From the NCBI RefSeq assembly GCF_001677475.2, contig NZ_CP015229.1: a DNA stretch of 64,000 nucleotides. One strand, given 5' to 3'. The notes beneath the pieces are model-generated. The model saw only the letters and a list, made by a program, of their open reading frames with translations. It was not told the origin of the DNA and did not search any database. Both the position numbers and the translations under genes were made by a program. Source of the stretch: Escherichia coli (GTDB taxonomy: Bacteria > Pseudomonadota > Gammaproteobacteria > Enterobacterales > Enterobacteriaceae). Numbering within the stretch: the first letter of the stretch is position 1; each line of letters starts with the position of its first letter. This document shows, in pieces, positions 8,307 through 38,882 of this stretch.

Positions 8307-8378
8307 TTCCTGTTCCGGGCCTTTCCTGCACCTTGCGGCGGGAGGCCTTCGCACATCTGTAGTAAAGAGAATTGCAGC

Positions 8379-11653: not shown

Positions 11654-11681
11654 TTAATTAATCAACATAAGGAAAAGCGAC

Positions 11682-12641: not shown

Positions 12642-12645
12642 ACCA

Positions 12646-12957: not shown

Positions 12958-12962
12958 CACAA

Positions 12963-12986
12963 CATCAGGGCGCATCCGCCCTGATG
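12963..12986 (+). terminator. hairpin after parR (catcagggcg-catc-cgccctgatg)
   Basis: 10-bp perfect stem; weak T tract, so terminator function is uncertain. Confidence 0.35.
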
Positions 12987-13020
12987 ACTTTAATCCGGGA
13001 ACATAAACAAGGGGGACACA

Positions 13021-13356: not shown

Positions 13357-13418
13357 CGAATTTGACGGCTTTTAATTTTATCGGGGCACACTGTCTCCCC
13401 CCGCACGAGGAAAACACG

Positions 13419-15566: not shown

Positions 15567-15580
15567 AAAGGACAGCCCCA

Positions 15581-18378: not shown

Positions 18379-18532
18379 TGCTCCCCCTGAGTAATTACAG
18401 GAAGATTACCCGCGCGCGAAACCGTTCTCCTTAACCCCCTGTTCTGGCCGTTTTCTTACAACAAAAGCCCTTTGTATCAGCCTGTTACGCTTTGCCATCA
18501 TGACTGAAGAACCAGTCAGAGGGGCAAAAACT

Positions 18533-19369
18533 ATGGCTAATGAAAAAAAGACATCCCGCAAAAAGTTTCGCGTGGCTGTCTCCGGATCAACTGTTGATGG
18601 CCGTGAAATCAGCCCGGTACATCTGCGTGAAGCCGCCGAGAACTTCAACCCGGATGTTTACGCTGCCCGCGTGAACGTTGAGCACTATCTCTCGCCATGC
18701 CCGTCAAGCGAATTTTCCGCAATGGGCGATGTCACCGCGCTGAGTACGGAAGATATTACGGAAGGCCCGCTGGCCGGACGTACTGCGCTGTATGCAGAAA
18801 TCGAACCGACCGAGCGCATGAAGCAGCTTGTCGCTGACGGCAAGAAAATCTATTCCAGTATCGAACTGCACCCGCAGTTCTCCGTTAACGGGCGCGCCTA
18901 TCTGGTCGGGCTGGCGATGACCGACACCCCGGCAAGCCTGGGCACTGAGCGCCTGAAATTCACGGCACAGCAGCGTCAGGCGGTGATGACGTTCAACAGT
19001 ATCCAGGGTGAAGCACCGCTTATCTCCGAAGCCATCGAGTCTGAAATCATCGAAATGGCAGAACAACGCCAGGAAGAAGGCAGCCAGTGGTTTAACCGCG
19101 TAATGGGGATTATTGGTCGTGGGCGCAAAGCGGATGACGCCAGTTTCTCCCGTATTCAGGAAGCGGTGGAAGGCGTCGCAACGTCACAGGCCGACATTAT
19201 CGACCGTTTTAATGTGCTGGAAACCCGCCATCAGCAGGACCGCCAGAAAATCACGTCACTGACCACAGAGCTGGCAGCACTGAAGGAAAAACTGCGCACG
19301 CAGGACGGCGATCCGCAGAACCGGTTCACCGCAACGGGCGCAGCCTCCGACCAGCTGGCTGACTTCTGA
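18533..19369 (+). CDS. O: capsid scaffolding protein, P2 gpO-like
   Basis: Start MANEKKTSRKKFRVAVSGSTVDGREIS aligns with recalled P2 gpO N-terminus. Confidence 0.8.
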   Translation: MANEKKTSRKKFRVAVSGSTVDGREISPVHLREAAENFNPDVYAARVNVEHYLSPCPSSEFSAMGDVTALSTEDITEGPLAGRTALYAEIEPTERMKQLVADGKKIYSSIELHPQFSVNGRAYLVGLAMTDTPASLGTERLKFTAQQRQAVMTFNSIQGEAPLISEAIESEIIEMAEQRQEEGSQWFNRVMGIIGRGRKADDASFSRIQEAVEGVATSQADIIDRFNVLETRHQQDRQKITSLTTELAALKEKLRTQDGDPQNRFTATGAASDQLADF

Positions 19370-19391
19370 TAAGACAAAGGAGCAAATTTTT

Positions 19392-20444
19392 ATGAATCTG
19401 GTGATGTCAGATATTACCCGCAACAAGCTGGGTTGCTATATGGCGCAGCAGGCGTCGCTTAACAATATCCCGGTATCTGCACTGGTATCGCGATTTACCG
19501 TAGAACCCTCGGTGCAGCAGCGTTTTGAAAACGCAGTAAAGGAGAGCACTGAATTTACAAAAAAAATTAACGTGTTCGGTGTGACCGACCAGAAAGGCGA
19601 AAAAATCCTCCTGGACACCACCGGGCCGATTGCGCGCACGAATACCAGTTATGACGGCACAAAACGCCGTAACCCGAATAACGTGGTTGATCTGAAAAAC
19701 CGCAAATATCAGTGCGAACAGGTGAACTACGACACGTTTATTTCGTATCCGAAGCTTGATGCCTGGGCGGCACACCCTGATTTTCAGTCACGCGTCAGCA
19801 CACGGATTGCCCGGCAGGTGGCGCTTGACCGCATCATGATCGGTTTCAACGGCACGTCTCACGCAGATGAGTCCAACTTCAGCACCAACAATCTGCTTCA
19901 GGACGTTAACGTGGGATGGCTGGAGCACATCAGAACCGACGCCAGCGAGCGCGTAATGAATGACGTGACGCTGACCTCCCGCAACATGGACAACACTGTG
20001 GCGCACGCGGGTAAGTATGCGAACGCTGATGCACTGGTACAGGACGCGCGCTCATCCCTGCTGGATGAATGGCACAAGGAAGCTGACGACCTCGTGGTGA
20101 TTATGGGGCGCAACCTGTTTAACTCGCTGCGTCTGCCCGTACTGAACAGCATCAGCGGCCAGAATCCCAATGCGGAATTACTTGCCGGACAGCTCATCCT
20201 GTCATCGCGCGCCATTGGCGGGCTGGATGTATTCCTTGCGCCGTTCTTCCCGGATGCAACGATGCTGATCACCTCGTTCAACAACCTGTCGATTTACTGG
20301 CAGAAAGGAACAATGCGTCGCCTGATGAAAGACGAGCCGGAATACAACCGCATCGCCACCTACCAGTCCATCAATGACGCTTATGTCGTTGAAGACTATG
20401 GCAAGTGCGCGATGGTCACTGGCCTGAAGTTCGCCGACAGCTAA
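19392..20444 (+). CDS. N: major capsid protein, P2 gpN-like
   Basis: 350 aa; FTVEPSV... and C-terminal YVVEDY motifs as in P2 gpN. Confidence 0.85.
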   Translation: MNLVMSDITRNKLGCYMAQQASLNNIPVSALVSRFTVEPSVQQRFENAVKESTEFTKKINVFGVTDQKGEKILLDTTGPIARTNTSYDGTKRRNPNNVVDLKNRKYQCEQVNYDTFISYPKLDAWAAHPDFQSRVSTRIARQVALDRIMIGFNGTSHADESNFSTNNLLQDVNVGWLEHIRTDASERVMNDVTLTSRNMDNTVAHAGKYANADALVQDARSSLLDEWHKEADDLVVIMGRNLFNSLRLPVLNSISGQNPNAELLAGQLILSSRAIGGLDVFLAPFFPDATMLITSFNNLSIYWQKGTMRRLMKDEPEYNRIATYQSINDAYVVEDYGKCAMVTGLKFADS

Positions 20445-23357: not shown

Positions 23358-23811
23358 TTCCCTGCGTGAAGCCATGACCCGTTCATGCCGATGGTGTCAG
23401 GCCAACCCGGAAAAATTCACCATTTTCGTGGAGAGCGGCAACATTGAAACGACAGGAGAAACCCCATCGTTTGTTTACCGCTATCAGATGGTGATGTTTG
23501 TCATGGATTACGCCGGGGAGCTGGACGACCTCACGCTGCCGCTGCTGGCGTGGTTATCCGAAAATCAGCCACAGTTGTTGCTCAACCCGGAGCGTAATCA
23601 GGACATCAAATTCTCCGCCGTTATCAATGACGATGACAGCGCCGATCTCCTGTTTACGCTCCCCCTGCGGGAACGCGTTCGCATCACGCGCAGCAGTCAG
23701 GGCACACCGCAGGCAGAACACCTGCCGGAGCCAAAACCACGCCTGCCATCTTCCGAAGGCGACTGGTCGCATGTATTCCGGGATGTGACGTGGGGTGAAA
23801 GCGATGGATAA
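23344..23811 (+). CDS. R: tail completion protein, P2 gpR-like
   Basis: 155 aa; synteny. Confidence 0.75.
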   Translation: MLKTDSLREAMTRSCRWCQANPEKFTIFVESGNIETTGETPSFVYRYQMVMFVMDYAGELDDLTLPLLAWLSENQPQLLLNPERNQDIKFSAVINDDDSADLLFTLPLRERVRITRSSQGTPQAEHLPEPKPRLPSSEGDWSHVFRDVTWGESDG

Positions 23812-24439
23812 GGCATTCACCCGCGTGGATGAAACCTTTGAGGCCATCCGCGACAGCCTGAATCAGCAGGCCATCAATAACATCGCCAGAAAGCTGGCAC
23901 AGGATTTACGCCGCGCCCAGCAGGCGCGTATCCGGTCACAGAAAGCGCCGGACGGGACCGCGTGGACACCACGCAGACGCCGCGTAACCCGGATACAGGA
24001 ACGCATTCGCTTTATCTGGAATAACGAAGCACGCACGCTGAAAAACTGGCATCACGACACGGGGAAATACGGGCGAACCATTACCGGGTGGGATGAGGAT
24101 AAAAACAATATCCGCACGTTTTACCGGGATGACATCGACCGTTTTCTGGAAATACGCACCCGGCGCATCAACCAGGACAGCACAAAGCGCGTCCCCATGT
24201 TCGTAAAACTGCGCACCGCCCGCTACCTGAAAGCCCGTGCAGATGCTTCCGGTGTGACGGTGGGTTACAGCGGCGTGGCTGCACGTATTGCACGCGTTCA
24301 TCAGTTTGGTGAGCGCGATCAGGTTGCGCCGGGCATTTTCACCGATTACCCGGTACGTGAGCTGTTGGGCATCAGTCAGGCAGATGAACGCCTGATTTAT
24401 AACACGGTGCTGGGCCGGATTGCGGAGGCTGTACGGTGA
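23795..24439 (+). CDS. S: tail completion / virion morphogenesis protein, P2 gpS-like (longer than P2 S)
   Basis: 214 aa by synteny. Confidence 0.65.
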   Translation: MKAMDKAFTRVDETFEAIRDSLNQQAINNIARKLAQDLRRAQQARIRSQKAPDGTAWTPRRRRVTRIQERIRFIWNNEARTLKNWHHDTGKYGRTITGWDEDKNNIRTFYRDDIDRFLEIRTRRINQDSTKRVPMFVKLRTARYLKARADASGVTVGYSGVAARIARVHQFGERDQVAPGIFTDYPVRELLGISQADERLIYNTVLGRIAEAVR

Positions 24440-25017
24440 GCGCAGAACTCATGCGGCTGCTGAGCAACATCATCCGCACCGGGATCATCTCTGAAGTTGA
24501 TGAGGAATCCTGGTGCGTGCGCGTTCGCAGCGGCGAACTGGAAACAGGCTGGCTGCGCTGGAACACCACTCGCGCGGGAGCCTTCAATGTGTGGCTGCCG
24601 CCATCACCAGGCGAACAGGTGGTAATTGCCTGCATCGGCGGCAACCCGGAAACCGCCATGATAATTGGCAGCCTGTGGAGTGATGCCAGTCCGGCCCCCG
24701 GCAAAAGCCTGAAAGAAATCGTGATCAGCGCGCCGGACGGCGCGGTGTTCCGCTACGACGCGGACGCTGGCGCACTGAGCGCCAGCGGCATGAAAACGGC
24801 CACTTTACAGGCATCCGTCAGCGTGACACTGGATACGCCCGTCGTGGAATGCACAAACCTTCTGAGAACGGCGACGCTTGACGTCACAAAAGGAGGAAAG
24901 ATGAGCGGCAATATCACGCACAGCGGCGGCAACTTCACCTCAAACGGCATTACCGTGCATACGCATAAACACGGTGGCGTGAAAGGCGGCAGCGATTCGA
25001 CAGGAGGCCCGCAGTGA
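24436..25017 (+). CDS. V: baseplate spike protein, P2 gpV-like
   Basis: 193 aa; synteny. Confidence 0.8.
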   Translation: MSAELMRLLSNIIRTGIISEVDEESWCVRVRSGELETGWLRWNTTRAGAFNVWLPPSPGEQVVIACIGGNPETAMIIGSLWSDASPAPGKSLKEIVISAPDGAVFRYDADAGALSASGMKTATLQASVSVTLDTPVVECTNLLRTATLDVTKGGKMSGNITHSGGNFTSNGITVHTHKHGGVKGGSDSTGGPQ

Positions 25018-26264: not shown

Positions 26265-26865
26265 TTCGTTGTTACCACCATCAGCCAGCAATTTCATGCG
26301 TTGTGCCGAAGCCGTCGGAACACGCATTACAGACATTCCGGTAGACCTCAACACGCTGTGGTCGCCGGACACCTGCCCGGTGCATCTGCTGCCTTATCTC
26401 GCCTGGGCGTTTTCCGTTGACCGCTGGGATCGCAACTGGCCGGAAGAGACAAAGCGACAGGTGATTCGTGATGCATGGCTGATACACCGACACAAAGGGA
26501 CCATCAGCGCACTGCGAAGAGCCGTGGAGCCTCTCGGCTACCTGATTGAAGTAAAGGAGTGGTGGCAACTCAACGAGGAGCCGGGAACATTTCGCATTGT
26601 TGTCGGAGTACTTGATCAGGGCATCACCGATGAAATGTATCAGGAACTTGAGCGCCTTATTGCGGATGCAAAACCAGTAAGTCGCCATCTGACGGGGCTG
26701 GCGATCAGCCTGAGTGTGAACGGAAAGATTTTCGTTGGTACGGGATGCTATCACGGCGATGCCCTGACGGTTTATCCCTACACCCCGGAGTCCATTATTG
26801 TCGAAGGGGATTATTTCCCTGCCCCGGCCATTCATTTAATTGATAATCTGAGAGTAAACGCATGA
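26257..26865 (+). CDS. I: baseplate/tail protein, P2 gpI-like
   Basis: about 202 aa; start overlaps J stop. Confidence 0.75.
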
Positions 26866-28346
26866 CAGTGAAATACTACGCCATTCTGACTAATCAGGGC
26901 GCGGCACGACTGGCTAACGCGACGATGCTCGGCAGTAAGCTGAATCTGACGCAAATGGCCGTTGGTGATGCAAATGGTGTGTTACCAACACCAGACCCTG
27001 CACAAACAAAACTGATTAACCAGAAACGCATTGCACCGCTGAATCTTCTGAGTATTGACCCGAACAACCAGAACCAGATTATCGCGGAGCAAATCATCCC
27101 TGAGAACGAGGGCGGATTCTGGATCCGTGAGATTGGTCTTTATGATGATGAAGGCGTACTCATTGCGGTGGCAAACTGCCCGGAAACGTACAAACCGCAG
27201 TTGCAGGAAGGCAGTGGACGCACCCAGACTATCCGCATGATTCTGGTTGTCACGAACACCGAAGCCATCACGCTGAAAATCGACCCGTCTGTGGTTCTGG
27301 CAACCCGCAAATATGTGGATGACAAAATCTCAGAGCACGAGCAGTCACGACGTCACCCGGACGCCTCGCTGACTGTAAAAGGTTTTACTCAGTTAAGCAG
27401 CGCAATTAACAGTGAATCAGAAACACTGGCCGCAACACCGAAAGCGGTTAAGGCTGCATATGACCTGGCTAACGGGAAATATACCGCCCAGAACGCCACC
27501 ACAACACAAAAAGGGATTGTTCAGCTCAGTAGCGCCACAAACAGCACGTCTGAAACGCTGGCAGCGACACCAAAAGCTGTTAAGGCGGTAATGGATGAAA
27601 CGAGCAAGAAAGCACCATTAAACAGCCCGGCACTGACCGGAACGCCAACAACACCAACAGCGCCACAGGGGACTAATAGTACCCAGATCGCAAGCACGGC
27701 TTTCGTTATGGCCGCGATTGCCGCACTTGTAGATTCGTCACCTGATGCACTGAACACGCTGAACGAACTGGCTGCGGCGCTGGGCAATGACCCGAATTTT
27801 GCGACCACCATGACTAACGCGCTTGCGGGTAAGCAACCGAAGGATGCCACCCTGACGGCGCTGGCGGAGCTTGCTACATCAGCAGATAAACTCCCATATT
27901 TTACAGGGGCAGATCGTGCCGCGTTAACCGCGTTGACAAGTGTTGGACGTGCCATTCTTGGTAAAACCAGCACTCAGGGAGTTCTTGATTACCTTGGTTT
28001 GGGAGAAGCGGCTAAAAGGAATGTAGGGACAGGGGCGAATCAGATACCTGATATGGGTAGCTTCACGCTTTCTGTTTCAGGTACTGGATATCAAAAATTA
28101 CCATCAGGTTTTATTCTTCAGTGGGGATCAATCGGCGCACCAGGCATTGCACAGGATGTAGTAACCCATTTCCCGATTGCATTTCCAAACAGATGTCTGC
28201 GTGTTTTGGTCTCACAAGACTACACACCAGATAGCGGGGCTGTTGGTTATATTGCCTGTGCAGGTTTTAGTCCCGACCCGGTTAAATTTATATCCAGAGC
28301 CAGTACTCCTGGCCTCGGCGCTTCATTTTTAGCGTTAGGCTGTTAA
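26862..28346 (+). CDS. H: tail fibre protein, P2 gpH-like; C-terminal variable part lies in an invertible segment
   Basis: 494 aa; conserved N-terminus [20 protein letters not shown]; repeated [11 protein letters not shown] motifs. Confidence 0.85.
27982..28007. repeat. hix/gix-like crossover site inside gene H (ttcttgattaccttggtttgggagaa)
   Basis: Resembles recalled hixL; a 15-bp core ttggtttgggagaag recurs inverted at 29815-29840. Confidence 0.6.
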
Positions 28347-28367
28347 TTTAGCTATATGGAGTGAAAA

Positions 28368-28808
28368 ATGAATTACATATATTCCGCGACTACAAACTCT
28401 TTCTATCCGCTGGAGATGAAAGAGGATTACACTCAAGCTGACTCATGGCCAGATGATGCTGTTGAAGTTGATGAGCAAGTGTATATTGAGTTTTCCGGAT
28501 TACCGCCGAAAGGAAAAATCCGTATCGCTGGAGAAAATGGTTTTCCTGCATGGTCTGAAATTCCACCACCAACACATGAGGAACAAATTGCTGCAGCCGA
28601 ATTGGAGAAGCAGCAATTGATTAATCAGGCCAACGATTATATGAACAGTAAACAATGGCCTGGTAAAGCGGCTATTGGTCGTCTGAAAGGTGAGGAACTG
28701 GCGCAATATAATTTGTGGCTGGATTATCTGGACGCACTGGAACTGGTTGATACCTCCAGTGCTCCAGATATTGAATGGCCTACGCCTCCGGCAGTTCAGG
28801 CCAGATGA
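28368..28808 (+). CDS. G: tail fibre assembly chaperone (P2 gpG-like)
   Basis: 146 aa directly after H. Confidence 0.8.
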   Translation: MNYIYSATTNSFYPLEMKEDYTQADSWPDDAVEVDEQVYIEFSGLPPKGKIRIAGENGFPAWSEIPPPTHEEQIAAAELEKQQLINQANDYMNSKQWPGKAAIGRLKGEELAQYNLWLDYLDALELVDTSSAPDIEWPTPPAVQAR

Positions 28809-29376
28809 CATCCGGCGCGGTGCTGGTATCTGTTGCCGTCACCGCGTCAATGTAATCCAGCACAGCGTTAAGTCTGGTTGTTTCTGCCTGCGTCAGTTTA
28901 CGTCCGGCCTGTAATTTCAGCTGAATCAGACTAATGGAAGCCATTGCTGCATCAATCAGTGACTGGCGCTGTGCTTCTGCCGTTTCTACTGCGGCACCGT
29001 GTTGTGCCTCAGTATCTGTCACCCATTTCTCACCATCCCATTTATCATATGGCGTTAACGGTGAAAGCGTGACATAACCGTTTTTGATGGCACCGATATA
29101 ATCCACTGTAACAGCAGCACCATTTTCGATTGAGTAAACAGTCTCATTGCGATGGTCTTCTTCATGGCTCCATCCCTTACCTGTAAATACTGCCACTCTT
29201 CCCGGAATGTTTTTGCCAGGGTCAATTCCAGTGGAACAGGCGGGCATACTTACGCCAGTATTAATATATTCATCAGACCAGCCCGTATACTCAGATGTTT
29301 CAGCATCATAATAAAAACAACGCATATCGCCCGGCACTGTAGCCAGTCCATTTTCATCAAAAATTGGGGTCATCAT
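28780..29376 (-). CDS. alternative tail fibre assembly chaperone (tfa'), convergent with G
   Basis: 198-aa minus-strand ORF; C-terminus ...IWPELPEA parallels G C-terminus ...IEWPTPPA. Confidence 0.75.
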   Translation of the reverse strand: MMTPIFDENGLATVPGDMRCFYYDAETSEYTGWSDEYINTGVSMPACSTGIDPGKNIPGRVAVFTGKGWSHEEDHRNETVYSIENGAAVTVDYIGAIKNGYVTLSPLTPYDKWDGEKWVTDTEAQHGAAVETAEAQRQSLIDAAMASISLIQLKLQAGRKLTQAETTRLNAVLDYIDAVTATDTSTAPDVIWPELPEA

Positions 29377-29832
29377 TTAGCCCTCACCAGAAAGTTAAAT
29401 GCAATATTTCGCGGTCTGACGGCAACAAAATTCACACCATCACCCACAGAGTTACTGGTGAAATTAAATCGTGAAAATCCTGGCTGATTTCCGGCGATAC
29501 CATCATGAAAATTAATTGCGTGGCCCGCACCATCGCCTATATTCCCGGCAAACTGAGAAAAGTTTGTAGCTGCCTGCCAGCTTAATAATTCGCGACCACC
29601 GTCTACACCTCGCCCGTCATCCCAGATACGAATGAAATCACCGCGGGCTTCAGGTAATACCAGCGAAGGAAACACTTTCGCCAGCACAGGGTAATCAGTG
29701 GCAGAAAATTTCGCCCCGTTGAACTTCAAAAACACCATACCGGACCAGCTGTCGATTACAGTATTTGGCATTGCCGCGGAGGGCCAGAAGAACGGAACGC
29801 CAATAGCTGGAGTACCTTCTCCCAAACCAACG
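29373..29832 (-). CDS. alternative tail-fibre C-terminal variable segment (promoterless; fuses to H after inversion)
   Basis: Minus-strand ORF reading ...NVGLGEGTPAI... from the hix-like site, paralleling H ...[11 protein letters not shown]. Confidence 0.65.
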
Positions 29833-29840
29833 TTTAAGAA
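29815..29840. repeat. hix/gix-like crossover site (inverted copy)
   Basis: Reverse complement carries ttggtttgggagaag. Confidence 0.6.
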
Positions 29841-29897
29841 AATGCAGAGATTACGGCTAACTGGCATCATCCCCGGTTTTTATTCAGGGGATCCATC

Positions 29898-30497
29898 ATG
29901 CTTATTGGCTATGTCCGCGTATCAACAAATGACCAGAATACAGAATTGCAGCGTAACGCGCTGGAGTGCGCAGGATGTGAACTGATTTTTGAAGATAAAA
30001 TCAGCGGAACGAAATCAGCCAGACCGGGATTGAAAAAACTACTCAGAACGCTATCAGAAGGAGATACGCTGGTTGTCTGGAAGCTGGACAGACTGGGCAG
30101 AAGTATGAAACACCTGATCACGCTTATTGAGGAATTGCGGGAAAAAGGGGTTAATTTCCGTAGTCTGACGGACAGCATCGACACATCAACACCCATGGGG
30201 CGTTTCTTTTTTCACGTCATGGGGGCTTTAGCCGAAATGGAACGTGAATTAATTGTAGAGCGTACACTGGCCGGACTGGCAGCAGCACGCGCACAAGGAC
30301 GCATTGGCGGACGTCGCCCGAAGTTGACAAAAGAACAACACGAGCAAATAGCGAGGCTGATTAAAAACGGTCATGACAGGAAACAACTGGCGATCATTTA
30401 CGACATCGGCATATCGACGATTTATCGCTATCACCCTGCAGGCGATATACAGGCTGAAGAAACAACCAGGCAGACTCAGGAAAATGAAAACCGCTAA
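29898..30497 (+). CDS. pin: serine DNA invertase, Hin/Gin/Pin/Cin family
   Basis: 199 aa; N-terminal GYVRVSTNDQ catalytic-serine motif and C-terminal HTH; adjacent to invertible tail-fibre segment. Confidence 0.9.
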   Translation: MLIGYVRVSTNDQNTELQRNALECAGCELIFEDKISGTKSARPGLKKLLRTLSEGDTLVVWKLDRLGRSMKHLITLIEELREKGVNFRSLTDSIDTSTPMGRFFFHVMGALAEMERELIVERTLAGLAAARAQGRIGGRRPKLTKEQHEQIARLIKNGHDRKQLAIIYDIGISTIYRYHPAGDIQAEETTRQTQENENR

Positions 30498-30518
30498 TCT
30501 GACCATTAGCGGTTTTGC
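30489..30518 (+). terminator. intrinsic terminator after pin (ccgctaat...attagcgg + tttt)
   Basis: Hairpin followed by T run. Confidence 0.55.
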
Positions 30519-30523
30519 GTTAA

Positions 30524-31018
30524 TCAAAACAGCCCTTTAACGGAGCTGGCCGCGCTGTTAAGGGATGATGTGACCTTATCTTTGAAGCCGGACAGCATAT
30601 CACTGAATGATGAGGATTGCAGGCGCTCCCGCAAATCCTCATCACAGCGTTCAAGAGTCAGTGAAAATTCTATCTTTTTCGCCTTACCGTAGCGATCAAA
30701 CTCGGAACGGGTCGTATTCGTTTCAGTCAGTACATACATGCCGTAAATTTGCCCGACACCATCAATCAGAGGCCAGGGGCGTCCTGTATATGCCTGCGTG
30801 GTCAGCAACGAAAGCGACACTTCGCCACCTGTAATTTCAGGATAAAGCACGCCGGAAAGCACAATGCGATCATCACCTGCACCGATATACTGCCAGCTTG
30901 CTGAACGGTTAACGCGTTCATTTTTCACATGCCGCCAGCTTTTGTTTTGCTGTAACTGCTGATGCGGCAGTGTGCGCAGCTCAAAAACAAACATGCCGTA
31001 GATCATCATCATGACCAT
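30524..31018 (-). CDS. U: tail protein, P2 gpU-like
   Basis: 164 aa; last gene of the minus-strand FI-FII-E-T-U block. Confidence 0.7.
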   Translation of the reverse strand: MVMMMIYGMFVFELRTLPHQQLQQNKSWRHVKNERVNRSASWQYIGAGDDRIVLSGVLYPEITGGEVSLSLLTTQAYTGRPWPLIDGVGQIYGMYVLTETNTTRSEFDRYGKAKKIEFSLTLERCDEDLRERLQSSSFSDMLSGFKDKVTSSLNSAASSVKGLF

Positions 31019-31024
31019 GACTCC

Positions 31025-33868
31025 TCAATCTTTATCGTAAAAACTGCCACGTCCGGCACGGGCGCGCCGTTCCATCTCTGCCCTGACCATTTCACCGACC
31101 AGTTTCGCCAGTTCGCGGGGATTCTGCGTAACAACGTTATGCAGATGAACATGAATTTCACCGCCAAATCCGGAGACAGCAGGCTCCCGATTACGGGAAG
31201 CTGCAGGAACTGATGCCACTGGCGATCGTATGGCCTCCGCCACCGGGCGGGAGCTGGCCGCAACAACAGGGACCAGCGCCGGAGGCAGCGGAGCCGGGAC
31301 TACGGGTGTGATATTAATTGCGGGGGCAGGCTTACTGACCTGCGCAATCTTCCGCTCCTGCCACTCCCCACGAACAGCCAGTGCGCGGGGCAGGTTCTTA
31401 AAGACAATATCGCCGGGGCCAATGCGTTTTTTCGTCTCATCAACCAGCTTACCTGTGTTATCAGCAATTTTGCTGAGTCTGCGTAGCGTCCCGGTATTGC
31501 TGTCTGTGAGCGGTTTGTTGTCTTTGGGTTTATCACCTCCGGTGCCATTGCCATTTTCCACAGGCTTCGGCGGATTGATTTTCGCAAGGTCCCCCTGAAG
31601 CAAGGCAACCTTGTCCTGAAGAATGGCCGCACGCTGTGCGTCTTCGATTTTCTTGCGCGCCTTTTCCGCTTCATCCGGAAGGACGCCAAGTTTTTCAAGT
31701 ATCCACGCCAGCGTATCCAGTAGCATTTTTGCAGGTGTCAGAACAAGCTGTAACGCACCGCCAAGAACGTTACCGAATATCTCGCCAGCACTGGTACATT
31801 TATCCAGCGTTTCCTTGCTGGACTCCATCGGTGACAGCAGCGATTTAAACCAGTTAAACACCTGGCTGATCCCGCTTCCGATTGCGTCAAAAACAGGACC
31901 AAACCGTTCAAAGGTTTCGCGCAACGGGGTCAGCCTTTCCATAATCCCGCTGAACACCCCGGCATAAAACGCCTTGATGGGTTCCCAGTATTTCCAGATG
32001 AGAACCGCCGCAGCCACAAACGCGGCAACAATCAATCCGACCGGACTGAACAGCGCCCCGATAGCGCCACCCAGCAACGAGATGGAACCTGTTACCATTC
32101 CCCATAGTGCTGGCAGCACCCTGACGACATTCATTGATCCGGTCAGGAGAGAAAAACCAAGACGTAACGTGGCCAGTTTCCCGTGAAGCACGCCAATAAC
32201 CAGCGACAACGAGCCAATCGTTGCAGTCATTGCCAGCAACGCACCGCCTGCTATCAGTAGCTGGCGCGTCAGTGCCGGATGGGCCTGCGCCAGCGCCGTC
32301 ACCCTTGATACCACCCGCGTGAGCCACTGCGTGACAGAACGCAGCGGGCCGTCAATCAGATCTGCAATGCGGATGCGCAACCCTTCCCATGCACTGCCGA
32401 GTGATTTCAGATCGCCATCAAGGTTGTTGGCCATAACCTTTGCCGTGCGTTCAGCCTCACCGCGTGCGCCTTCAAGTTCTTTTCTCAGTTTGGGTAAGGA
32501 ACCGTCACCTGCCGCATCAACGAGGGCCATAAACGATGTGAAAGCCTCTTCCCCGGCGATGTCCTTAAAGAAGGATACCCGGTCAACTTCCCCGTATTTG
32601 CGGGTGGCTTTATAAAGGTCGGCCAGCACATCCTCCATCGGGCGCATTTTGCCGTTCGCGTCAGAAACTGCCACACCAAGCTCTTTCAGCGCCTCTGCTG
32701 CTGCCTTTGGCGGTGATGCCAGACGAGCCAGGCTGGCACGCATTGCCGTCCCGGCATCACTCCCTCTGATACCCATATTCGCCAGCACGCCCGCCATCGC
32801 TGCGGCCTGCTCCAGCGATATTCCCAGCTTACCCGCCACCGGACCTGCATATTTCATGGTTTCGCCCAGTGCGCGAAGGTCAGTGTTGGTACGGGTAAAC
32901 GCTGCGGTGAGTGTGTCACCAACCCGGTCCATCTGGTCAGCAGAAAGGCCGAACTGCGTCAGGATATTTGAGCCAATATCCGCCGTCTCGCCGAGATCCA
33001 TACCGCCAGCCGTTGCCATGCTCAACACGCCGGGAAGCGCAGCCTGAATGGCCTGCGGTGTGAAGCCAGCCATTGCAAGAAATGCCTGTCCACTGGCGGC
33101 ATCGCCTGCGGTGAACTGCGTTTCAGAGCCAAGTTTTAACGCCTGCTCACGCAGCGCCTTAAACTGTGGGCTGTTCTGGTCGATTCGCGTCAGTGCCTGA
33201 ACGCGGGACATCTCTTTCCCGAACCCGATCGCAGGCTGCAAAAAACGCCCGGCAGCATAGCCGCCAGCCGCTGCCGCACCAATTGCCAGCGCACCACCTG
33301 TTTTCAGTTTTCCAGCAGTTTCCTGCGCGCGCGAATACCGCTCACGCGCCCGCGTTACACGCGCAAGCGTCTGCCGTTCGCGTTCAAGCTGGTTGTTGTA
33401 CTGTTCGGTGCGTCTGATGGCCTGCTGGATGGTGTTATCGCTGCCTGTCAGGGAAATGCCGTGGCGTTTCAGCTCTCCGCCAAGCTCCCGCATTTTCTGA
33501 ATTTCCCGTGTGCGCGATTCATTCAGGCGTTCAAGCCGGGTGCTTAACTGCTGCATCAGCTTTTGTTGTTTTTCGCTGAGCACTGTACCCGTGCGTTGTA
33601 ACTGATTAAGGGCGTTAAGCTGGCGTCGTGCTTTCACGATGCCCGCATCCGCTTTACTGACAGCGTCACGGGCGCGCTCAAACGAACGCGCCTGACGCTC
33701 GAGATTTTTGATCGCCCCCTGCGTTCGCTGGATGGAGTCACCAAACTGCCCCATCAGGCGGCGGGCGTTTTCGGCAGGCCGGGTCAGCCTGTCAACGGCG
33801 CTGAAAGCGACCCGGATATCAAGAGTCTTCATTGTCTGCATTCCCGCTGCGAAGTGCCGCCCGCTCAC
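31025..33868 (-). CDS. T: tail tape measure protein, P2 gpT-like
   Basis: 947 aa, helical/Gly-Ala-rich; synteny. Confidence 0.85.
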   Translation of the reverse strand: MSGRHFAAGMQTMKTLDIRVAFSAVDRLTRPAENARRLMGQFGDSIQRTQGAIKNLERQARSFERARDAVSKADAGIVKARRQLNALNQLQRTGTVLSEKQQKLMQQLSTRLERLNESRTREIQKMRELGGELKRHGISLTGSDNTIQQAIRRTEQYNNQLERERQTLARVTRARERYSRAQETAGKLKTGGALAIGAAAAGGYAAGRFLQPAIGFGKEMSRVQALTRIDQNSPQFKALREQALKLGSETQFTAGDAASGQAFLAMAGFTPQAIQAALPGVLSMATAGGMDLGETADIGSNILTQFGLSADQMDRVGDTLTAAFTRTNTDLRALGETMKYAGPVAGKLGISLEQAAAMAGVLANMGIRGSDAGTAMRASLARLASPPKAAAEALKELGVAVSDANGKMRPMEDVLADLYKATRKYGEVDRVSFFKDIAGEEAFTSFMALVDAAGDGSLPKLRKELEGARGEAERTAKVMANNLDGDLKSLGSAWEGLRIRIADLIDGPLRSVTQWLTRVVSRVTALAQAHPALTRQLLIAGGALLAMTATIGSLSLVIGVLHGKLATLRLGFSLLTGSMNVVRVLPALWGMVTGSISLLGGAIGALFSPVGLIVAAFVAAAVLIWKYWEPIKAFYAGVFSGIMERLTPLRETFERFGPVFDAIGSGISQVFNWFKSLLSPMESSKETLDKCTSAGEIFGNVLGGALQLVLTPAKMLLDTLAWILEKLGVLPDEAEKARKKIEDAQRAAILQDKVALLQGDLAKINPPKPVENGNGTGGDKPKDNKPLTDSNTGTLRRLSKIADNTGKLVDETKKRIGPGDIVFKNLPRALAVRGEWQERKIAQVSKPAPAINITPVVPAPLPPALVPVVAASSRPVAEAIRSPVASVPAASRNREPAVSGFGGEIHVHLHNVVTQNPRELAKLVGEMVRAEMERRARAGRGSFYDKD

Positions 33869-34357
33869 GCCAGCTAACCACTTCGCCGGGCGTCATCATG
33901 AAGATTTCGGCGGGCGACCAGTTAAAAATGGCGGCGATATCTGCCACCAGATCTTCGATGTGCTCAAAGCACACCAGGGTAATTACGCTGCCGTCTCCTG
34001 CACGCTCTTCGCGCCAGAGTCTGGCTCGCTCATAAAATTTACAGCCACAGCGCACAACTGAATAAAATCGCGTGACGACATTTTTTTAATCATCACTTCA
34101 TCCAGTCGTGGCGAGGTCACGCGAGGCAACAGCGTAAACATGGTATCCGCTTTCAGATTCAGCACATCAGACAGCGACAGACCACGCAGGGATCCAGCCT
34201 GCTCAATAGCCCCGGTGATCTCCACATACGTGATTTTTTCGCCACCACGCTCAATTGGTCGGGTCAGTTTTACGCCACGTTCGACAGCCATATCCTCACC
34301 TGCCGTCACATCATCCGCCACGGTGTTATTCCGGGTTTCAGTATCGATGTCTTTCAT
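33819..34357 (-). CDS. tail assembly chaperone E+E' (predicted -1 programmed frameshift product)
   Basis: A7 slippery run (plus-strand ttttttt at 34081-34087) inside E; the -1 frame stays open to 33819 and overlaps the T start. Confidence 0.55.
33983..34357 (-). CDS. E: tail assembly chaperone, P2 gpE-like
   Basis: 124-aa ORF between tube and tape measure genes. Confidence 0.7.
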   Translation of the reverse strand: MKDIDTETRNNTVADDVTAGEDMAVERGVKLTRPIERGGEKITYVEITGAIEQAGSLRGLSLSDVLNLKADTMFTLLPRVTSPRLDEVMIKKMSSRDFIQLCAVAVNFMSEPDSGAKSVQETAA

Positions 34358-34412
34358 CAGTTGTCTCCTTTTCAGTCAGAGGCGACGCACTGCGCCGCCT
34401 GCATATTACTTA

Positions 34413-34925
34413 TCAGCCAAGCCCAAGCGCGGAACGGATACGGTCAGGCACAATGTCCTTGCCGTCCTTCCGGTAGATGTGGTTCAACAGGTCGATTTCC
34501 CACAGCGGGCGATCGTTAACGCTCAGCTTGTAGTAGGTGTTTTTGACAGCGTAAGTGTGTGATGTGGCTTCGCCCTGTTTGGCTTCCCCCATATCAATTT
34601 CCGTCACACGCCCACGCATCTCGATTTCATACAGATCGCTTTCTGCATCGGTGTAGTATTCACCCGCAAAACGCAGCAGCGTGCCGTCAATCGTGCCGCC
34701 ATATTTAAGGAACAGCGCACGAACAGCTCCCCCCATGACAAAACTCGCATCAAGCGCGGAGTCGTCCAGACCGAGATCAATACTTACCGCCCCCATCATG
34801 CCACCACCACGATAGCTGTCGGTTTTGCGCGTCAGTTTGGGCGGCGTGACGGATGTCACTTTACCCACTTCGTTTTCACCATCCACAAACAACGTAAAAA
34901 AGCGAAGATGTTTTGGTACAGCCAT
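34413..34925 (-). CDS. FII: tail tube protein, P2 gpFII-like
   Basis: 170 aa; synteny. Confidence 0.85.
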   Translation of the reverse strand: MAVPKHLRFFTLFVDGENEVGKVTSVTPPKLTRKTDSYRGGGMMGAVSIDLGLDDSALDASFVMGGAVRALFLKYGGTIDGTLLRFAGEYYTDAESDLYEIEMRGRVTEIDMGEAKQGEATSHTYAVKNTYYKLSVNDRPLWEIDLLNHIYRKDGKDIVPDRIRSALGLG

Positions 34926-36109
34926 CAGGCACCTCCCAGCACCGCAAATGCGGGACCAAAGAATTCATCAGTAAACGTCTGGTAAAGCTCCATGTCTTCC
35001 AGCGGGGGAACAGGCGTATATTTGTAGCGAATACGCACACGTCCCTGACGTAAATTCGTGGTGCCGTTATCCACCACGTCATACCAGCACTCCGCGCCAA
35101 TCAGTTTCCCGGCAGTAACCAGCGAATCCAGTTTTGCCCTGATGGCACTGATAACATCCTTCACGTTCGCAGGCGTCAGTGGACTGTCGATGGTTTCAAA
35201 CTGCGCTTCCGCAATTGAATCAGCCAGCACCTGTGCGGTTCGGGTATACACCTCAAAGATGTAGGCGTTCGTTTCCGGTGTGCGGTTGCCCCAGAAGCGG
35301 AACCCGTTGCGACGAATAATGGTCGTGATTTCTTTGTTGTTGAGGCTGTTGGCATCGCTGTCTTCGGCCTGCAACGACCAGAACACATGCCTCGACATCC
35401 CCAGCACATTTTTAACCGGAACGTTGGACAGTGATTTGTGCCATCCCTGCTCATGGTCAATGTACGCACGAAGGCCGCACGCATAGGCAGGCGCGGGGAA
35501 CGTTTCGTTTTTGCCACTTTTCGGGTTGTAGGCGATGAAGTCTGGCCATAAGAGCATCACCTCACGTTCGTTGAATTTCTGGCGGTAGGTAATTGCCTCG
35601 GCCATCGTGTTACAGCCATGACATGAGGCATACACAAACGCGCGCAGTTTACCCGCAATCACGCACAGGGATTTTGTCACCGCCTCCGTGTCCAGCTCCG
35701 GCGCGGCCAGAATACGCGGACGGTATCCGATGCTTTCATCCTGCTCTGCAACAAGCAGCGCATACATCCCCGTATAGCTGCCGTCAGATTCAGAACCACC
35801 GATAACCAGTTGATCCTGCGTTTTTCCGTCTTCTTCTTTGTGTTCAGCCACGCGAACGACGATCACCTTTGTGCTCACCTGGTCTGCGATGGCCTTAAGC
35901 GCACGATAAAGCGTCCCCGTTGTTCCGCATTTTCCCAGCACGTCATTGACGCGGGTCAGCAGTGTGGGCTTGTTCAGCGGGAACAGCTCCGCGTCCGCAT
36001 CATCTGCCGTTGCCACGATACCGATAACACTGGAATCAACATCATTAATCGCTGTTACCAGGTCGGTACTTTCCGTAACACGGGCACCATGAAAACGAGT
36101 TTCACTCAT
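34925..36109 (-). CDS. FI: contractile tail sheath protein, P2 gpFI-like
   Basis: 394 aa; motifs GWHKSLSNV, IRRNGFRFWGNRT, YTRTAQV, YTPVPPLE match recalled P2 FI. Confidence 0.9.
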   Translation of the reverse strand: MSETRFHGARVTESTDLVTAINDVDSSVIGIVATADDADAELFPLNKPTLLTRVNDVLGKCGTTGTLYRALKAIADQVSTKVIVVRVAEHKEEDGKTQDQLVIGGSESDGSYTGMYALLVAEQDESIGYRPRILAAPELDTEAVTKSLCVIAGKLRAFVYASCHGCNTMAEAITYRQKFNEREVMLLWPDFIAYNPKSGKNETFPAPAYACGLRAYIDHEQGWHKSLSNVPVKNVLGMSRHVFWSLQAEDSDANSLNNKEITTIIRRNGFRFWGNRTPETNAYIFEVYTRTAQVLADSIAEAQFETIDSPLTPANVKDVISAIRAKLDSLVTAGKLIGAECWYDVVDNGTTNLRQGRVRIRYKYTPVPPLEDMELYQTFTDEFFGPAFAVLGGA

Positions 36110-36266
36110 AGCTTCAGCCCCTTGTATCCGTTAAATGATTCGGCAACAATCATCACCCACCACGCGCGTAATCTCACCCCTGCGCCGTTCTCCCGCCACG
36201 GCGACAACAAAAAGCAGTAATCCCCTCCGCACGCACATGCGACCATGCCGCACAGGGAGGGAACAG

Positions 36267-37376
36267 ATGACCGACACCACCATGCAATTGCTCAGTCAGG
36301 GCACAGACCCCGTGAAAATGCCGGATTTTGATATTCTCGCGGAGGGTAAAACGCTGTCAGGCGTGGCAGAGCGCCTGATGAGCCTGTCACTGACCGACAA
36401 CCGGGGATTTGAGGCGGACCAGCTCACCATCACGCTGGATGATGCGGATGGTCAGTTGCAGCTACCGCCACGGGGCGTGCGCCTGACGGTTCTCATTGGC
36501 TGGAAAGGAGAACCGCTGACAGAAAAAGGCACTTACATTGTTGATGAAATCGCTCACGAAGGACCGCCGGACAGGCTGACTGTTTCAGCCAGAAGCGCAG
36601 ATTTTCGGGATGAATTTAACGTTAAACGTGAGGTGTCCTGGCATGATGTGACCGTTGAGCGTGTGGTATCCGCCATCGCTCATCGGTACGGTCTGAAACC
36701 GCAAATCAGCGAAATGCTGATGGATATCGAAATCGACCACGCCGACCAGACCGAAGAAAGCGACATGTCCTTCCTTACGCGCATGGCGGAAATGCTGGGC
36801 GCAATCACCACGGTAAAAAGCGGCAATCTGTTATTCATCATGCCAGGTGGTGGCGTGAACGCACAGGGCCAGCCGTTGCCATCGTTCGCCATCACACGCA
36901 GCAGCGGCGATCGCCATCAGTTCCGCATTGCTGACCGCGAGGCGTATACGGGGGTGCGCGCCTACTGGCTTGATCTTAACTATGGGAAAAAGAAAAAAGT
37001 CAGCGTGAAACGCCGCAAACCACCCAAACCGAAAAAGGAGAAAAGCAGCAGCCGCGAAGGTGACTATATGGAAGGTGCGGAAGGCAACGTGTTTGTGTTA
37101 CGCAAGACTTATCAGAACGAGCAGGCAGCAAGACGCGCAGCGGCGGCAAAGTGGCAGCAGCTACAACGCGGAGCCGCATCATTTTCCATCACGCTGGCAC
37201 GTGGACGCGCAGAACTCTACCCCGAAATGCATGGCACAGTAACAGGATTTAAAAGCGAGATTGATAATCAGGACTGGATTATTGCAAAAGCCGAGCACAC
37301 CATTGATAACAGCGGCTTTACCACGCAGCTTGAGCTTGAGGCAAAAATCCCGGAATGGATAGCAGAAACAGAGTGA
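36267..37376 (+). CDS. D: tail protein / late control protein, P2 gpD-like
   Basis: 369 aa; MSLSLTDNRGFEADQLTITLDD..., DHADQTEESDMSFLTR, GFTTQLELE match recalled P2 gpD. Confidence 0.9.
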   Translation: MTDTTMQLLSQGTDPVKMPDFDILAEGKTLSGVAERLMSLSLTDNRGFEADQLTITLDDADGQLQLPPRGVRLTVLIGWKGEPLTEKGTYIVDEIAHEGPPDRLTVSARSADFRDEFNVKREVSWHDVTVERVVSAIAHRYGLKPQISEMLMDIEIDHADQTEESDMSFLTRMAEMLGAITTVKSGNLLFIMPGGGVNAQGQPLPSFAITRSSGDRHQFRIADREAYTGVRAYWLDLNYGKKKKVSVKRRKPPKPKKEKSSSREGDYMEGAEGNVFVLRKTYQNEQAARRAAAAKWQQLQRGAASFSITLARGRAELYPEMHGTVTGFKSEIDNQDWIIAKAEHTIDNSGFTTQLELEAKIPEWIAETE

Positions 37377-37502
37377 ACAACCTCGACGTTTTATTTAATA
37401 TACAAAAGCCTTCTGGACACGGTAAGGCAAGAACAAGGATAGAAGATCCTTTACAGTCAGAGTTACAGGTTATACCTGTAAGCAAAAACAAAGGCATATA
37501 TT

Positions 37503-38261
37503 ATGTTCAGTTTGTTTTCGTTAACTGCCGGAGCAAATGTGCGCTGGCATGATTTACCTGGTCAGGGTATTCCTGTTGTTTTTATTCATGGACTTGGCTG
37601 TTCCTCTTCTTATGAATATCCACGGGTTGTTGCAGATCCTGTATTTGGTGGACAACGAGCGATATTGATAGATCTCCCTGGATATGGATTCAGTGATAAG
37701 CCTAAAGGATTCGATTACAGCATATCCCATCAAGCTAAGGTTGTTATTGAAGTAGTAGAAACCTTAAATCTCTCACAGTTCCATATTTATGGTCACAGTA
37801 TGGGGGGAAGTATTGCGATTGAAGTAGCCAGACAACTACATGAGAGAACAAGAAAGCTTGTGGTTTCTGAGCCTAATTTTCACTCTGGTGGAGGTACCTA
37901 TAGCCGTAAGATAATAGAGAAGCCAGAAGCAGAGTTTATTTCGCATATATATAATGAATTACTGGAGTGTGAAACATCCCCATGGAAAGGTGAACTCCAG
38001 AATGCAGCCCCATGGGCAATATGGCGAGGAGCCAAAAGTCTGGTTGATGGAACCACTCCATCATGGCGAGATATATTCCTTAATCTGTCCTGTTCACGAA
38101 CACTAATTTTTGGCGAACAATCATTGCCAGATAATGATTTCCAGTATATAAAAGAATCAGGAATATCTGTTGCAATAGTGCCAAACGCCGGACACTCCAT
38201 GTCATGGGAAAACCCATCAGCACTGGCCGAAATTTTACACACAGAATTTTATAAAGAGTAA
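37503..38261 (+). CDS. alpha/beta-hydrolase fold protein (esterase/lipase-type), prophage cargo
   Basis: 252 aa; oxyanion HGLG, nucleophile elbow GHSMGG, C-terminal His (NAGHS); AT-rich island between D and ogr. Confidence 0.7.
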   Translation: MFSLFSLTAGANVRWHDLPGQGIPVVFIHGLGCSSSYEYPRVVADPVFGGQRAILIDLPGYGFSDKPKGFDYSISHQAKVVIEVVETLNLSQFHIYGHSMGGSIAIEVARQLHERTRKLVVSEPNFHSGGGTYSRKIIEKPEAEFISHIYNELLECETSPWKGELQNAAPWAIWRGAKSLVDGTTPSWRDIFLNLSCSRTLIFGEQSLPDNDFQYIKESGISVAIVPNAGHSMSWENPSALAEILHTEFYKE

Positions 38262-38621
38262 AATTGCTCATATATAAATGTTGTTCCATCAGTATCATAT
38301 TATCAAAGGGCAGGAGGTAAATTTATCTTCTGCCATTTCACTCAAATCAGGCGATTTGATAGCACGCATTTTATGAGATGCTTGAAACTTATAAATATAT
38401 AAGAACGTCTTGTTATCAAAATATATAAGCACAGAAAGCAAACACTTTCCCATAATTACTTTGTTAATTTTTTGCCTGATAATAAATGGCATAATAAACA
38501 GTATCAGAGAGTATTTTTATTAATAATTAAACACACATTCCTCAATCTGACATGACTGTTAGTTGGCATATTTACAAATACAATTTAAAATAACGACAGC
38601 AAAACGTTAAGGGAGGTCGCT

Positions 38622-38882
38622 ATGTTCCGTTGTCCGCTTTGTGGCGCATCTGCCCGTATCCGCACCAGTCGTCCAGAAAATGATTCAAACACCGTACGGC
38701 AAAAGTATTACCAATGTAACAACCTGGAATGCGGCGTATGCTTCTCAACACTGGAAGCTTTCCATAAATTCACATCGAAACACGCCTCCGGCGCTCACTC
38801 TTCAGAAAGTATCCCGTGGCATGAACTGCCAGCTTCCCACAGAGGAAACAATCAGATGAGTTTGCCCTTACCTCAAAATTAA
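38622..38882 (+). CDS. ogr: late gene transcription activator, Ogr/Delta zinc-finger family
   Basis: MFRCPLCGASARIRTSR...YYQCNNLECGVCF resembles recalled P2 Ogr (CPLC...C..C). Confidence 0.85.
   Translation: MFRCPLCGASARIRTSRPENDSNTVRQKYYQCNNLECGVCFSTLEAFHKFTSKHASGAHSSESIPWHELPASHRGNNQMSLPLPQN

Follow-up and report, generated by a model that had tools for sequence, protein, structure and literature searches.

In phage P2 the tail genes FI, FII, E, E', T, U and D form one operon, transcribed from the PF promoter and read through to ogr, and the reference annotation (NC_001895) places H, G, FI, FII, E, T, U, D and ogr on a single strand. The window analysed here, a 64,000-nucleotide stretch of Escherichia coli DNA, carries a P2-like prophage in which part of this operon points the other way. 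The open reading frames place U, T, E, FII and FI on the minus strand (30524-36109) and D and ogr on the plus strand, so that the first-pass annotation was right to describe the block as inverted relative to P2, and right also about the length of the divergent region between FI and D, which is 157 bp (36110-36266). The baseplate and fibre genes, H (26862-28346) among them, are on the plus strand too. Two questions follow from this layout: whether it is an artefact, a switch or a settled gene order, and how D would be transcribed once it had been parted from the rest of its operon.

The inverted block and the prophage that carries it

Read leftward from the spacer on the minus strand, the inverted operon begins with the tail sheath gene FI (34925-36109; phrog_23, E-value 8e-126; 46% identical to P2 FI), followed by the tail tube gene FII (34413-34925; phrog_55, E-value 1e-58; 43% identical to P2 FII) and the tail assembly chaperone gene E (33983-34357; phrog_103, E-value 1e-36). 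The PHROG label for phrog_55, the FII family, is 'head closure'. Overlapping the end of E in the open reading frame list is a further minus-strand frame (33819-34055), whose translation is predicted to be E', an extension of E reached by frameshift as in P2-type tail chaperones; a 156-bp CDS named 'tail protein' is annotated there in P88 and P88_4B11. The open frame of the tape measure gene T extends to a GTG at 33868, but an ATG at 33832 is the likelier start because it yields 2808 bp, the CDS length annotated in P88_4B11 (31025-33832, minus strand; phrog_28, E-value 5e-214). The block ends with the tail protein gene U (30524-31018, minus strand; phrog_76, E-value 9e-75), which is 99% identical to U of P88. 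Between U and the convergent invertase gene to its left, a terminator scan found a hairpin with a 12-pair stem set between an A-run and a T-run (30487-30516; -18.6 kcal/mol, z = -2.2), which is probably a bidirectional intrinsic terminator that would end the FI-to-U operon.

On the other side of the spacer, D (36267-37376, plus strand; phrog_52, E-value 1e-165) encodes a protein of the late control D/baseplate hub family and is 49% identical to P2 D. We place its start at 36267 because a ribosome-binding site, GGGAGGG (36255-36261), and the alignment across genera both favour it; an in-frame ATG at 36135 would lengthen the frame but lacks a ribosome-binding site, and was rejected. Downstream of D lies ogr (38622-38882, plus strand; phrog_603), encoding a zinc-finger late activator. 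Its product is 38% identical to P2 Ogr by BLASTP (E-value 1e-14) and retains all four cysteines of the zinc-finger motif in the arrangement C-X2-C-X24-C-X4-C; its score of 43 bits against the NCBIfam Ogr equivalog is below the cut-off of 116. Between D and ogr there is an AT-rich insert of 1.2 kb (37382-38580, plus strand; GC content 0.376 vs 0.524 for the prophage), with breakpoints set by comparison with P88_4B11, which lacks it. The insert carries an alpha/beta-hydrolase reading frame (37503-38261, plus strand; Pfam Abhydrolase_1, E-value 4e-20) that had no match in the PADLOC defence library, and it is cargo, lying outside the tail module.

The prophage is bounded by a 25-bp att repeat with copies at 2680 and 39479, and it is a P88-like member of the genus Xuanwuvirus, family Peduoviridae. 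From the invertase to ogr it is colinear, on a single strand of the match, with P88, P88_4B11, Shae_phiSM and others at 94-96% nucleotide identity. Against the Xuanwuvirus type members, identity of 94-96% spans 58-72% of two large queries, with the fibre and cargo parts uncovered. PHROG matches within the prophage comprise the integrase, A, R, S, FI, FII, E, T, U, D, ogr and the invertase, and megablast matches across 5500-20000 bear terminase, portal and scaffold annotations. Nucleotide identity, the P2-type gene set and gene order all agree with assignment to Xuanwuvirus. P88 and its genus share with this prophage the plus-strand invertase, the minus-strand series U-T-E-FII-FI, plus-strand D and ogr and an FI-D spacer of 156-157 bp. 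The P88-type phages differ in their tail-fibre segments: H is 63% identical, and positions 28000-29899 are uncovered by their matches.

Distribution and age of the inverted order

The suggestion that the block might be a misassembly does not survive comparison with other genomes. Of 5426 complete E. coli genomes, 1357 (about a quarter), each assembled independently, contain the FI-D junction as a contiguous sequence, and it recurs in sequenced virion genomes such as P88; we therefore put the chance of an artefact peculiar to this window at next to nil.

Hardly more credible is the idea that the 5.6-kb block is a segment switched by the neighbouring invertase, or else a recent inversion particular to this strain. 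A DNA invertase gene of the Gin/Cin/Hin type (29898-30497, plus strand; phrog_125, E-value 1e-99) does abut the U end and forms the left border of the block. Its crossover sites, however, occur in only two copies in the window (27991-28008 and 29816-29833), and both flank the tail-fibre segment, which is what this invertase serves rather than FI to U. Because there is no third crossover site and no inverted repeats flank the block (no pair joins 30.5 kb to 36.1-36.3 kb), we reject inversion of the block by the invertase. The population data also speak against this idea: 80 IMG/VR loci and 44 diverse loci show a single orientation, and among the 1381 E. coli records matching the junction 1359 are contiguous, the remainder being partial matches. 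The prophage thus resembles the Mu G and P1 C segments in having an invertase and a fibre segment with 18-nt inverted crossover sites, to the left of the block, but unlike those segments the FI-to-U block has no crossover sites and stands in one orientation everywhere examined; it is fixed and not a switch.

The comparison with related phages, which the first-pass annotation had named beforehand among its refuting tests, gave the inverted order as the conserved norm. Annotated records of P88, P88_4B11 and Salmonella SEN5 show this order, and tblastn recovers it in Klebsiella phages of the genera Reginaelenavirus and Reipivirus. A scan of IMG/VR by alignment of D returned only relatives at least 99% identical, and was used for orientation and cargo counts; all 80 of these have the same order, with an FI-D spacer of 156-157 bp in every one. 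Diversity for the conservation analysis was supplied by a scan of species-representative genomes. Here gene order follows the divergence of D closely. Where D is at least 61% identical to that of the window and FI is present, the block is inverted in 42 of 42 loci; a 43rd locus at this level of identity (L136) has lost FI to T, with U still opposite D in strand. At 54% identity or less, every scorable locus has the P2 order, as do P2 itself, Wadgaonvirus, Felsduovirus, Arsenicumvirus and Arsyunavirus.

Neighbour-joining trees of D and of FI both group the 44 inverted loci as a single clade that includes no locus of P2 order, which suggests that the inversion happened once, long ago. At least four genera of Peduoviridae have the inverted order as their fixed state, in many hosts among the Enterobacterales that range from Escherichia to Photorhabdus and Providencia. 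That the inversion is a fixed, clade-wide character is, taken alone, a conclusion we hold with near certainty. The proposed polarity, with the P2 order as the ancestral state, depends on the choice of outgroup and on distance trees, as distinct from a rooted likelihood analysis. The gene order is already visible in public annotations and is not new. The inverted block is discussed in none of the papers found by a literature search on Xuanwuvirus, P88, SEN4/SEN5, P2-like inversions and Peduoviridae synteny, and both the clade-defining status of the inversion and the account of promoter capture set out below may be undescribed.

The control region between FI and D

What, then, drives transcription in the two directions from the spacer? 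A generic sigma-70 scan of the FI-D spacer in both directions found no full -35/-10 promoter. In P2, late transcription is known to fail in an rpoA109 host. P2 late promoters have been given the consensus TGT-N12-ACA, and in a study of phage Smp131 one such site, read on both strands, was assigned to PP' and PO' (PMC3931495). An exact search for TGT-N12-ACA finds nothing in the FI-D spacer, but it misses the local site, which reads TCT-N12-ACA, its left half-site being one mismatch away from the P2 consensus. The core occupies 36189-36206 (centre 36197.5) and belongs to a longer dyad, GTTCT-N12-ACAAC (36187-36208), identified by motif search, which resembles the P2 PF site GTTGT-N12-CCAAC and which we predict to be an Ogr-type late-activator site common to the FI and D promoters. 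Exact matches to GTTCT-N12-ACAAC number only two in the 64 kb, against about 0.1 expected by chance on our own arithmetic; the other lies in the divergent spacer between P and O (18441-18462) and serves as an internal comparison. That second dyad is flanked by TAATCT 48.5 nt from its centre on the P side and by CATCAT at 49.5 nt on the O side.

Two further candidates arising from these searches were set aside. The FI-D spacer does not appear to be a duplicate of the P/O spacer, as alignment scores of 21 and 19 fall inside the shuffled range (mean 15.7, maximum 27). A one-mismatch match to the motif at 12942-12963 was rejected as a late promoter: a hairpin follows directly, and TAT takes the place of TGT/TCT.

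In a set of 38 unique spacers from the inverted clade, the half-sites of the dyad are kept across genera and the 12-nt sequence between them is free to vary. A minority of inverted loci (L102, L121, L123 and L134) have no strict T[GC]T-N12-ACA core where one is expected; they have recognisable variants, for example GTTCT-N12-AGAAC in Providencia. The centre of the TGT-N12-ACA motif lies 79.5-83.5 nt upstream of the FI ATG in P2-order lineages and 75-89 nt upstream in inverted lineages, and these like distances imply that the FI side is the same PF promoter.

The same 38 spacers have -10-like hexamers placed symmetrically about the dyad, 48.5 nt to either side. On the FI side this is GATGAT (36149-36154, minus strand), whose last T is 48.5 nt from the dyad centre and whose position is conserved throughout the set; by analogy with P2 it would place the FI start near 36142, with a leader of about 33 nt. 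On the D side the candidate promoter element is an extended -10-like sequence, TGcGACCAT (36238-36246, plus strand; clade consensus tG.aA..AT), the hexamer GACCAT of which ends at the same distance from the centre. From this element we would predict a D start near 36253 and a very short leader of about 14 nt.

A different inverted repeat in the spacer had drawn attention in the first-pass annotation: the palindrome CGCCG-N11-CGGCG at 36183-36203. The palindrome is there, exact, with 5-bp arms in mid-spacer, and it is kept among near-identical Xuanwuvirus sequences, but the conserved element is the overlapping dyad, and a functional role for the palindrome itself finds little in its favour. Matches to the palindrome with at most one mismatch number 5 in the window vs 3.1 expected, a count that 19 of 100 shuffles reach, and by our own arithmetic, if any short spacing is allowed, chance alone should produce palindromes with 5-bp arms within 157 bp. 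The palindrome lies mostly inside the dyad's non-conserved 12-nt spacer, where the sequences of Reginaelenavirus, Senquatrovirus, Reipivirus and some 35 further lineages are unrelated, and its centre is at 36193 whereas that of the dyad is at 36197.5. It is very improbable that CGCCG-N11-CGGCG is the operator for some regulator, and judged on sequence it appears to be incidental.

A probable shared activator site for two promoters

The nearest parallel to the FI-D spacer is the PP/PO region of P2, where the dyad (3063-3080) is centred exactly midway between annotated starts at 3016 and 3127. In both regions a single dyad stands midway between divergent units, each of the two -10 hexamers ends 48.5 nt from its centre, and about 111 bp separate the starts, which are annotated in P2 and predicted in the window. 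The two differ in the left half-site (TGT in P2, TCT here) and in what they control, which is packaging and head genes for PP/PO and the genes from sheath to U, plus D, for the FI-D spacer. As at PP/PO, a single copy could serve a promoter on each side, since the site is a dyad predicted to sit about 55 nt upstream of a start site. We find it likely, on this anatomy, that the spacer is a two-way late promoter built around one shared site, with Ogr predicted to bind the dyad and to be needed for firing in both directions. Of the three first-pass readings, the evidence favours a lineage-specific order with a bidirectional late promoter; the order is a property of the clade, and the promoter is a prediction from the layout of the spacer.

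The strongest alternative accepts the fixed inversion but would have the dyad serve FI only, with D on a separate, Ogr-independent promoter such as a housekeeping extended -10. The D side does carry a conserved TGn extended -10 together with a GC-rich block, and promoters of this kind can fire without an activator; were this so, D would be truly uncoupled from late control. Against it, the spacer has a single conserved dyad, the -10 of D stands at the same 48.5 nt from that dyad as the -10 of FI and both -10 elements of P2 PP/PO, and a prophage would not normally express a baseplate hub protein constitutively. We consider this alternative unlikely. The first-pass annotation had also raised the possibility that the inversion uncoupled D from the FI promoter, which is correct in the evolutionary sense that D is now a separate transcription unit; in the regulatory sense it probably does not hold, since the same activator site adjoins D and co-regulation is likely to have been kept.

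Compared with the P2 F operon, the prophage retains the FI-to-U internal order with genes at 33-48% protein identity, an activator of the Ogr family and, some 80 nt upstream of the FI ATG, an activator dyad of the same type. FI to U, however, is inverted relative to H-G and D-ogr, and D, which has lost its overlap with U, is preceded by a ribosome-binding site and a predicted promoter of its own. The history we propose is that the stretch from the PF promoter to U, taking in FI, FII, E/E' and T, was inverted in an ancestor of the clade while D and ogr stayed put, and that the layout has been fixed since. The PF activator site would have moved with FI in the inversion and landed beside D. Late in infection, Ogr would bind GTTCT-N12-ACAAC and activate leftward transcription of FI-FII-E-T-U, from the predicted FI start to the hairpin beyond U, as well as rightward transcription of D, possibly with read-through to ogr. 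Taken as a whole, this statement, of a fixed ancestral inversion with a shared-site, two-way, Ogr-dependent late promoter, has our good confidence. A broader reading is that the inversion made the one-way PF symmetric and two-way, splitting the tail operon under continued late control, and that the freed D-ogr interval became a hotspot for cargo insertion; towards this we lean, with rather less assurance.

For annotation, the consequence is that this layout is normal in very common enterobacterial prophages and ought not to be marked as rearranged or misassembled. The inversion could also act as a quick synteny marker in the classification of Peduoviridae prophages. Its wider value is modest: a clean case of operon re-wiring, in which one inversion marks a P2-like clade of at least four ICTV genera, and in which the symmetry of the dyad would give a simple account of how the essential gene D stayed under late control after leaving its operon.

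Orientation of the tail block in the prophage

U (30524-31018), T (31025-33868, probable ATG at 33832), E (33983-34357, with an overlapping E' frame), FII (34413-34925) and FI (34925-36109) lie on the minus strand of the window, and D (36267-37376) and ogr (38622-38882) on the plus strand, which also carries the baseplate and fibre genes upstream of the block. The ORF list and PHROG profile matches bear out these gene calls, which were those of the first-pass annotation, and the sequence contains the divergent 157-bp spacer that it described between FI and D. In the annotated P2 record (NC_001895), H, G, FI, FII, E, T, U, D and ogr all share one strand and U abuts D. Thus the block is, as had been proposed, inverted relative to P2. 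A two-way hairpin at 30487-30516 would terminate the FI-to-U operon. Further upstream, the tail-completion gene S (23795-24439) overlaps the following baseplate gene (24436-25017) at 24436-24439, leaving no intergenic space for a separate PV promoter, which in P2 lies between S/orf30 and V; the genes from head to fibre may form a single long operon.

The prophage spans about 36.8 kb between two copies of a 25-bp direct repeat, AAAGAAAAAAGGCCGCAGAGCGGCC, at 2680-2704 and 39479-39503, which mark its ends (att core); the right copy falls inside an Rfam match to the STnc540 sRNA (39427-39579). By megablast against phage records it is 94-96% identical to Escherichia phage P88, P88_4B11, Citrobacter phage Shae_phiSM and other Xuanwuvirus, with which the stretch from invertase to ogr is colinear in full on a single strand. 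The integrase gene lies at 3730-4872 and the A-type replication gene at 8738-11605, the latter followed directly by a gene for a ParM-like partition protein (11682-12641, plus strand; phrog_691, E 4e-90), unusual in an integrating P2-type phage. The early region also holds adjacent plus-strand matches, above the Rfam gathering score, to the Hfq-binding sRNA isrK (7822-7896) and to C4 antisense RNA (7932-8019). Past ogr and before the right att site comes an ORF (39073-39213, plus strand) for a 46-aa hok/gef-type membrane toxin, whose P88 homologue is annotated as 'MokW-like host killing'.

D and ogr are separated in the window by an AT-rich 1.2-kb insert (37382-38580, GC 0.376) that fills exactly the space from the D stop codon to 41 nt upstream of ogr. 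The product of its ORF (37503-38261, plus strand) is an alpha/beta-fold hydrolase of 252 aa (Pfam Abhydrolase_1), for which the PADLOC defence library gave no match. Of 80 near-identical IMG/VR prophages, 37 have a gap of 38-42 bp, 37 have one of 1.0-3.8 kb and six end before ogr; this variability marks the junction as a cargo hotspot of the P88 group.

Distribution and origin of the inverted order

Annotated genomes of P88, P88_4B11 and Salmonella phage SEN5 (Senquatrovirus) share the arrangement, with invertase or fibre genes on the plus strand, U-T-E-FII-FI on the minus strand and D on the plus strand, and tblastn with the window proteins recovers it in Klebsiella phages of Reginaelenavirus and Reipivirus. 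All 80 IMG/VR relatives have it, with spacers of 156-157 bp. P2 order is found in P2, Wadgaonvirus, Felsduovirus SopEPhi and two unclassified Klebsiella phages, as well as in Shewanella Arsenicumvirus, Enterobacter ENT4 and Ralstonia Arsyunavirus.

Scanning a single genome for each bacterial species with a D-protein alignment yielded 80 loci, which fall cleanly into two groups. The block is inverted in 42 of the 42 that retain FI and have a D at least 61% identical to that of the window, in hosts that include Citrobacter, Edwardsiella, Serratia, Enterobacter, Pantoea, Erwinia, Kosakonia, Klebsiella, Raoultella, Yokenella, Providencia, Photorhabdus, Xenorhabdus, Morganella, Hafnia, Rouxiella and Yersinia. 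A 43rd inverted-clade locus, L136 in Providencia rettgeri RB151 (NZ_CP017671.1), looks like a decayed prophage that has lost FI, FII, E and T; its U lies on the minus strand, opposite to D and about 1.3 kb away. Every scorable locus with D identity of 54% or less has P2 order. The D and FI neighbour-joining trees, with the Ralstonia phage as root, both place the 44 inverted loci in a single clade (stem lengths 0.18 and 0.27) with no P2-order member within it, and the simplest reading is one inversion in the clade's ancestor. Because P2 order is widespread among distant lineages we take it as ancestral, and an ancestral P2 order with a single inversion event is very probable.

We considered whether the block could be a switch, since a Gin/Cin/Hin-type invertase gene (29898-30497) adjoins its U end. 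This was rejected: no inverted repeats flank the block in the window, the only two copies of the invertase crossover sequence in the window (27991-28008 and 29816-29833) flank the tail-fibre segment, and no genome examined within the clade has the opposite orientation. The invertase serves this segment, which is invertible and about 1.8 kb long; 18-nt inverted crossover sites inside H delimit it, and alternative fibre C-termini and assembly genes lie on its opposite strand. The invertase-U junction (30200-30900) is kept in only 620 E. coli genomes, against 1357 for the FI-D junction, and in many the homology ends just beyond the stop codon of U; sequence past that point is therefore variable, resembling the Z/fun position of P2. 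Misassembly, which the first-pass annotation had allowed for, is disposed of by the E. coli genomes: 1357 of the 5426 complete ones have the FI-D junction (query 35800-36600) uninterrupted, and 1359 of the 1381 matching records keep 80% or more of the query in a single stretch. The inversion is fixed and clade-wide, a lineage-specific norm, and is almost certainly neither artefact nor switch.

The FI-D spacer as a candidate two-way late promoter

The window contains exactly two copies of the motif GTTCT-N12-ACAAC, one in the divergent P/O spacer (18441-18462) and one in the FI-D spacer (36187-36208), against a chance expectation, by arithmetic estimate, of about 0.1 copies. It matches the P2 late-promoter consensus TGT-N12-ACA (PMC3931495) with one mismatch and is close to the P2 PF site, GTTGT-N12-CCAAC. 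Across genera the half-sites are kept (GTTGT-N12-ACAAC in Reginaelenavirus, GTTGT-N12-ACAAT in SEN5, GGTCT-N12-ACAAC in Reipivirus) and the 12-nt spacer is wholly different. In nearly all inverted loci the FI ATG is preceded, 75-89 nt upstream, by the strict core T[GC]T-N12-ACA; the four that lack it (L102, L121, L123 and L134 of the species scan) have close variants in its place, among them GTTCT-N12-AGAAC (Providencia) and GGCCT-N12-ACAAC (Erwinia psidii). In P2-order lineages TGT-N12-ACA lies 79.5-83.5 nt upstream of the FI ATG, and this similar distance identifies the FI side as the PF promoter, moved with the inversion. The palindrome CGCCG-N11-CGGCG previously pointed out in the spacer is indeed present (36183-36203), but is incidental: palindromes this strong occur at about chance frequency in the window, it falls mostly within the dyad's variable spacer with its centre 4.5 nt off, and it is absent from other genera sharing the inverted order.

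Aligning 38 unique spacers, anchored on the dyad, showed conserved half-sites, an unconserved N12 and a conserved -10-like hexamer on the FI strand; on the D strand, a conserved TGn extended -10 is followed by a ribosome-binding site and the ATG. In the window, the FI-side hexamer GATGAT (36149-36154, minus strand) and the D-side hexamer GACCAT (36241-36246, plus strand) each end 48.5 nt from the dyad centre (36197.5). In the P2 record, one activator region lies between the PP and PO start sites (3016 and 3127); its dyad, TGT-N12-CCA (3063-3080), is centred at 3071.5, their exact midpoint, and a distance of 48.5 nt again separates this centre from the ends of the -10 hexamers, TAGCCT and GAAACT. 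The FI-D spacer thus shares the geometry of a known two-way late promoter of P2, which by analogy places the predicted start sites near 36142 and 36253. The P/O spacer of the window has the same layout, TAATCT lying 48.5 nt and CATCAT 49.5 nt from its dyad centre. The ogr product shares 38% identity with P2 Ogr, and all four zinc-finger cysteines are present.

The main rival reading is that D has a promoter independent of Ogr. By analogy with PP/PO, we consider it likely that a single dyad, bound by Ogr, drives the FI-to-U operon on one side and D on the other, and the D transcript may read through towards ogr; the bidirectional late promoter suggested earlier is consistent with the dyad, the conserved -10-like elements on both sides and their spacing, with activation in both directions argued from P2.

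A literature search found no paper explicitly stating the inversion or the shared-site promoter. The inverted gene order itself is known and ordinary: public annotated genomes that show it were deposited years ago, and about one in four complete E. coli genomes has it. An explicit account of the inversion and of the shared-site promoter is a small interpretive addition rather than a discovery.
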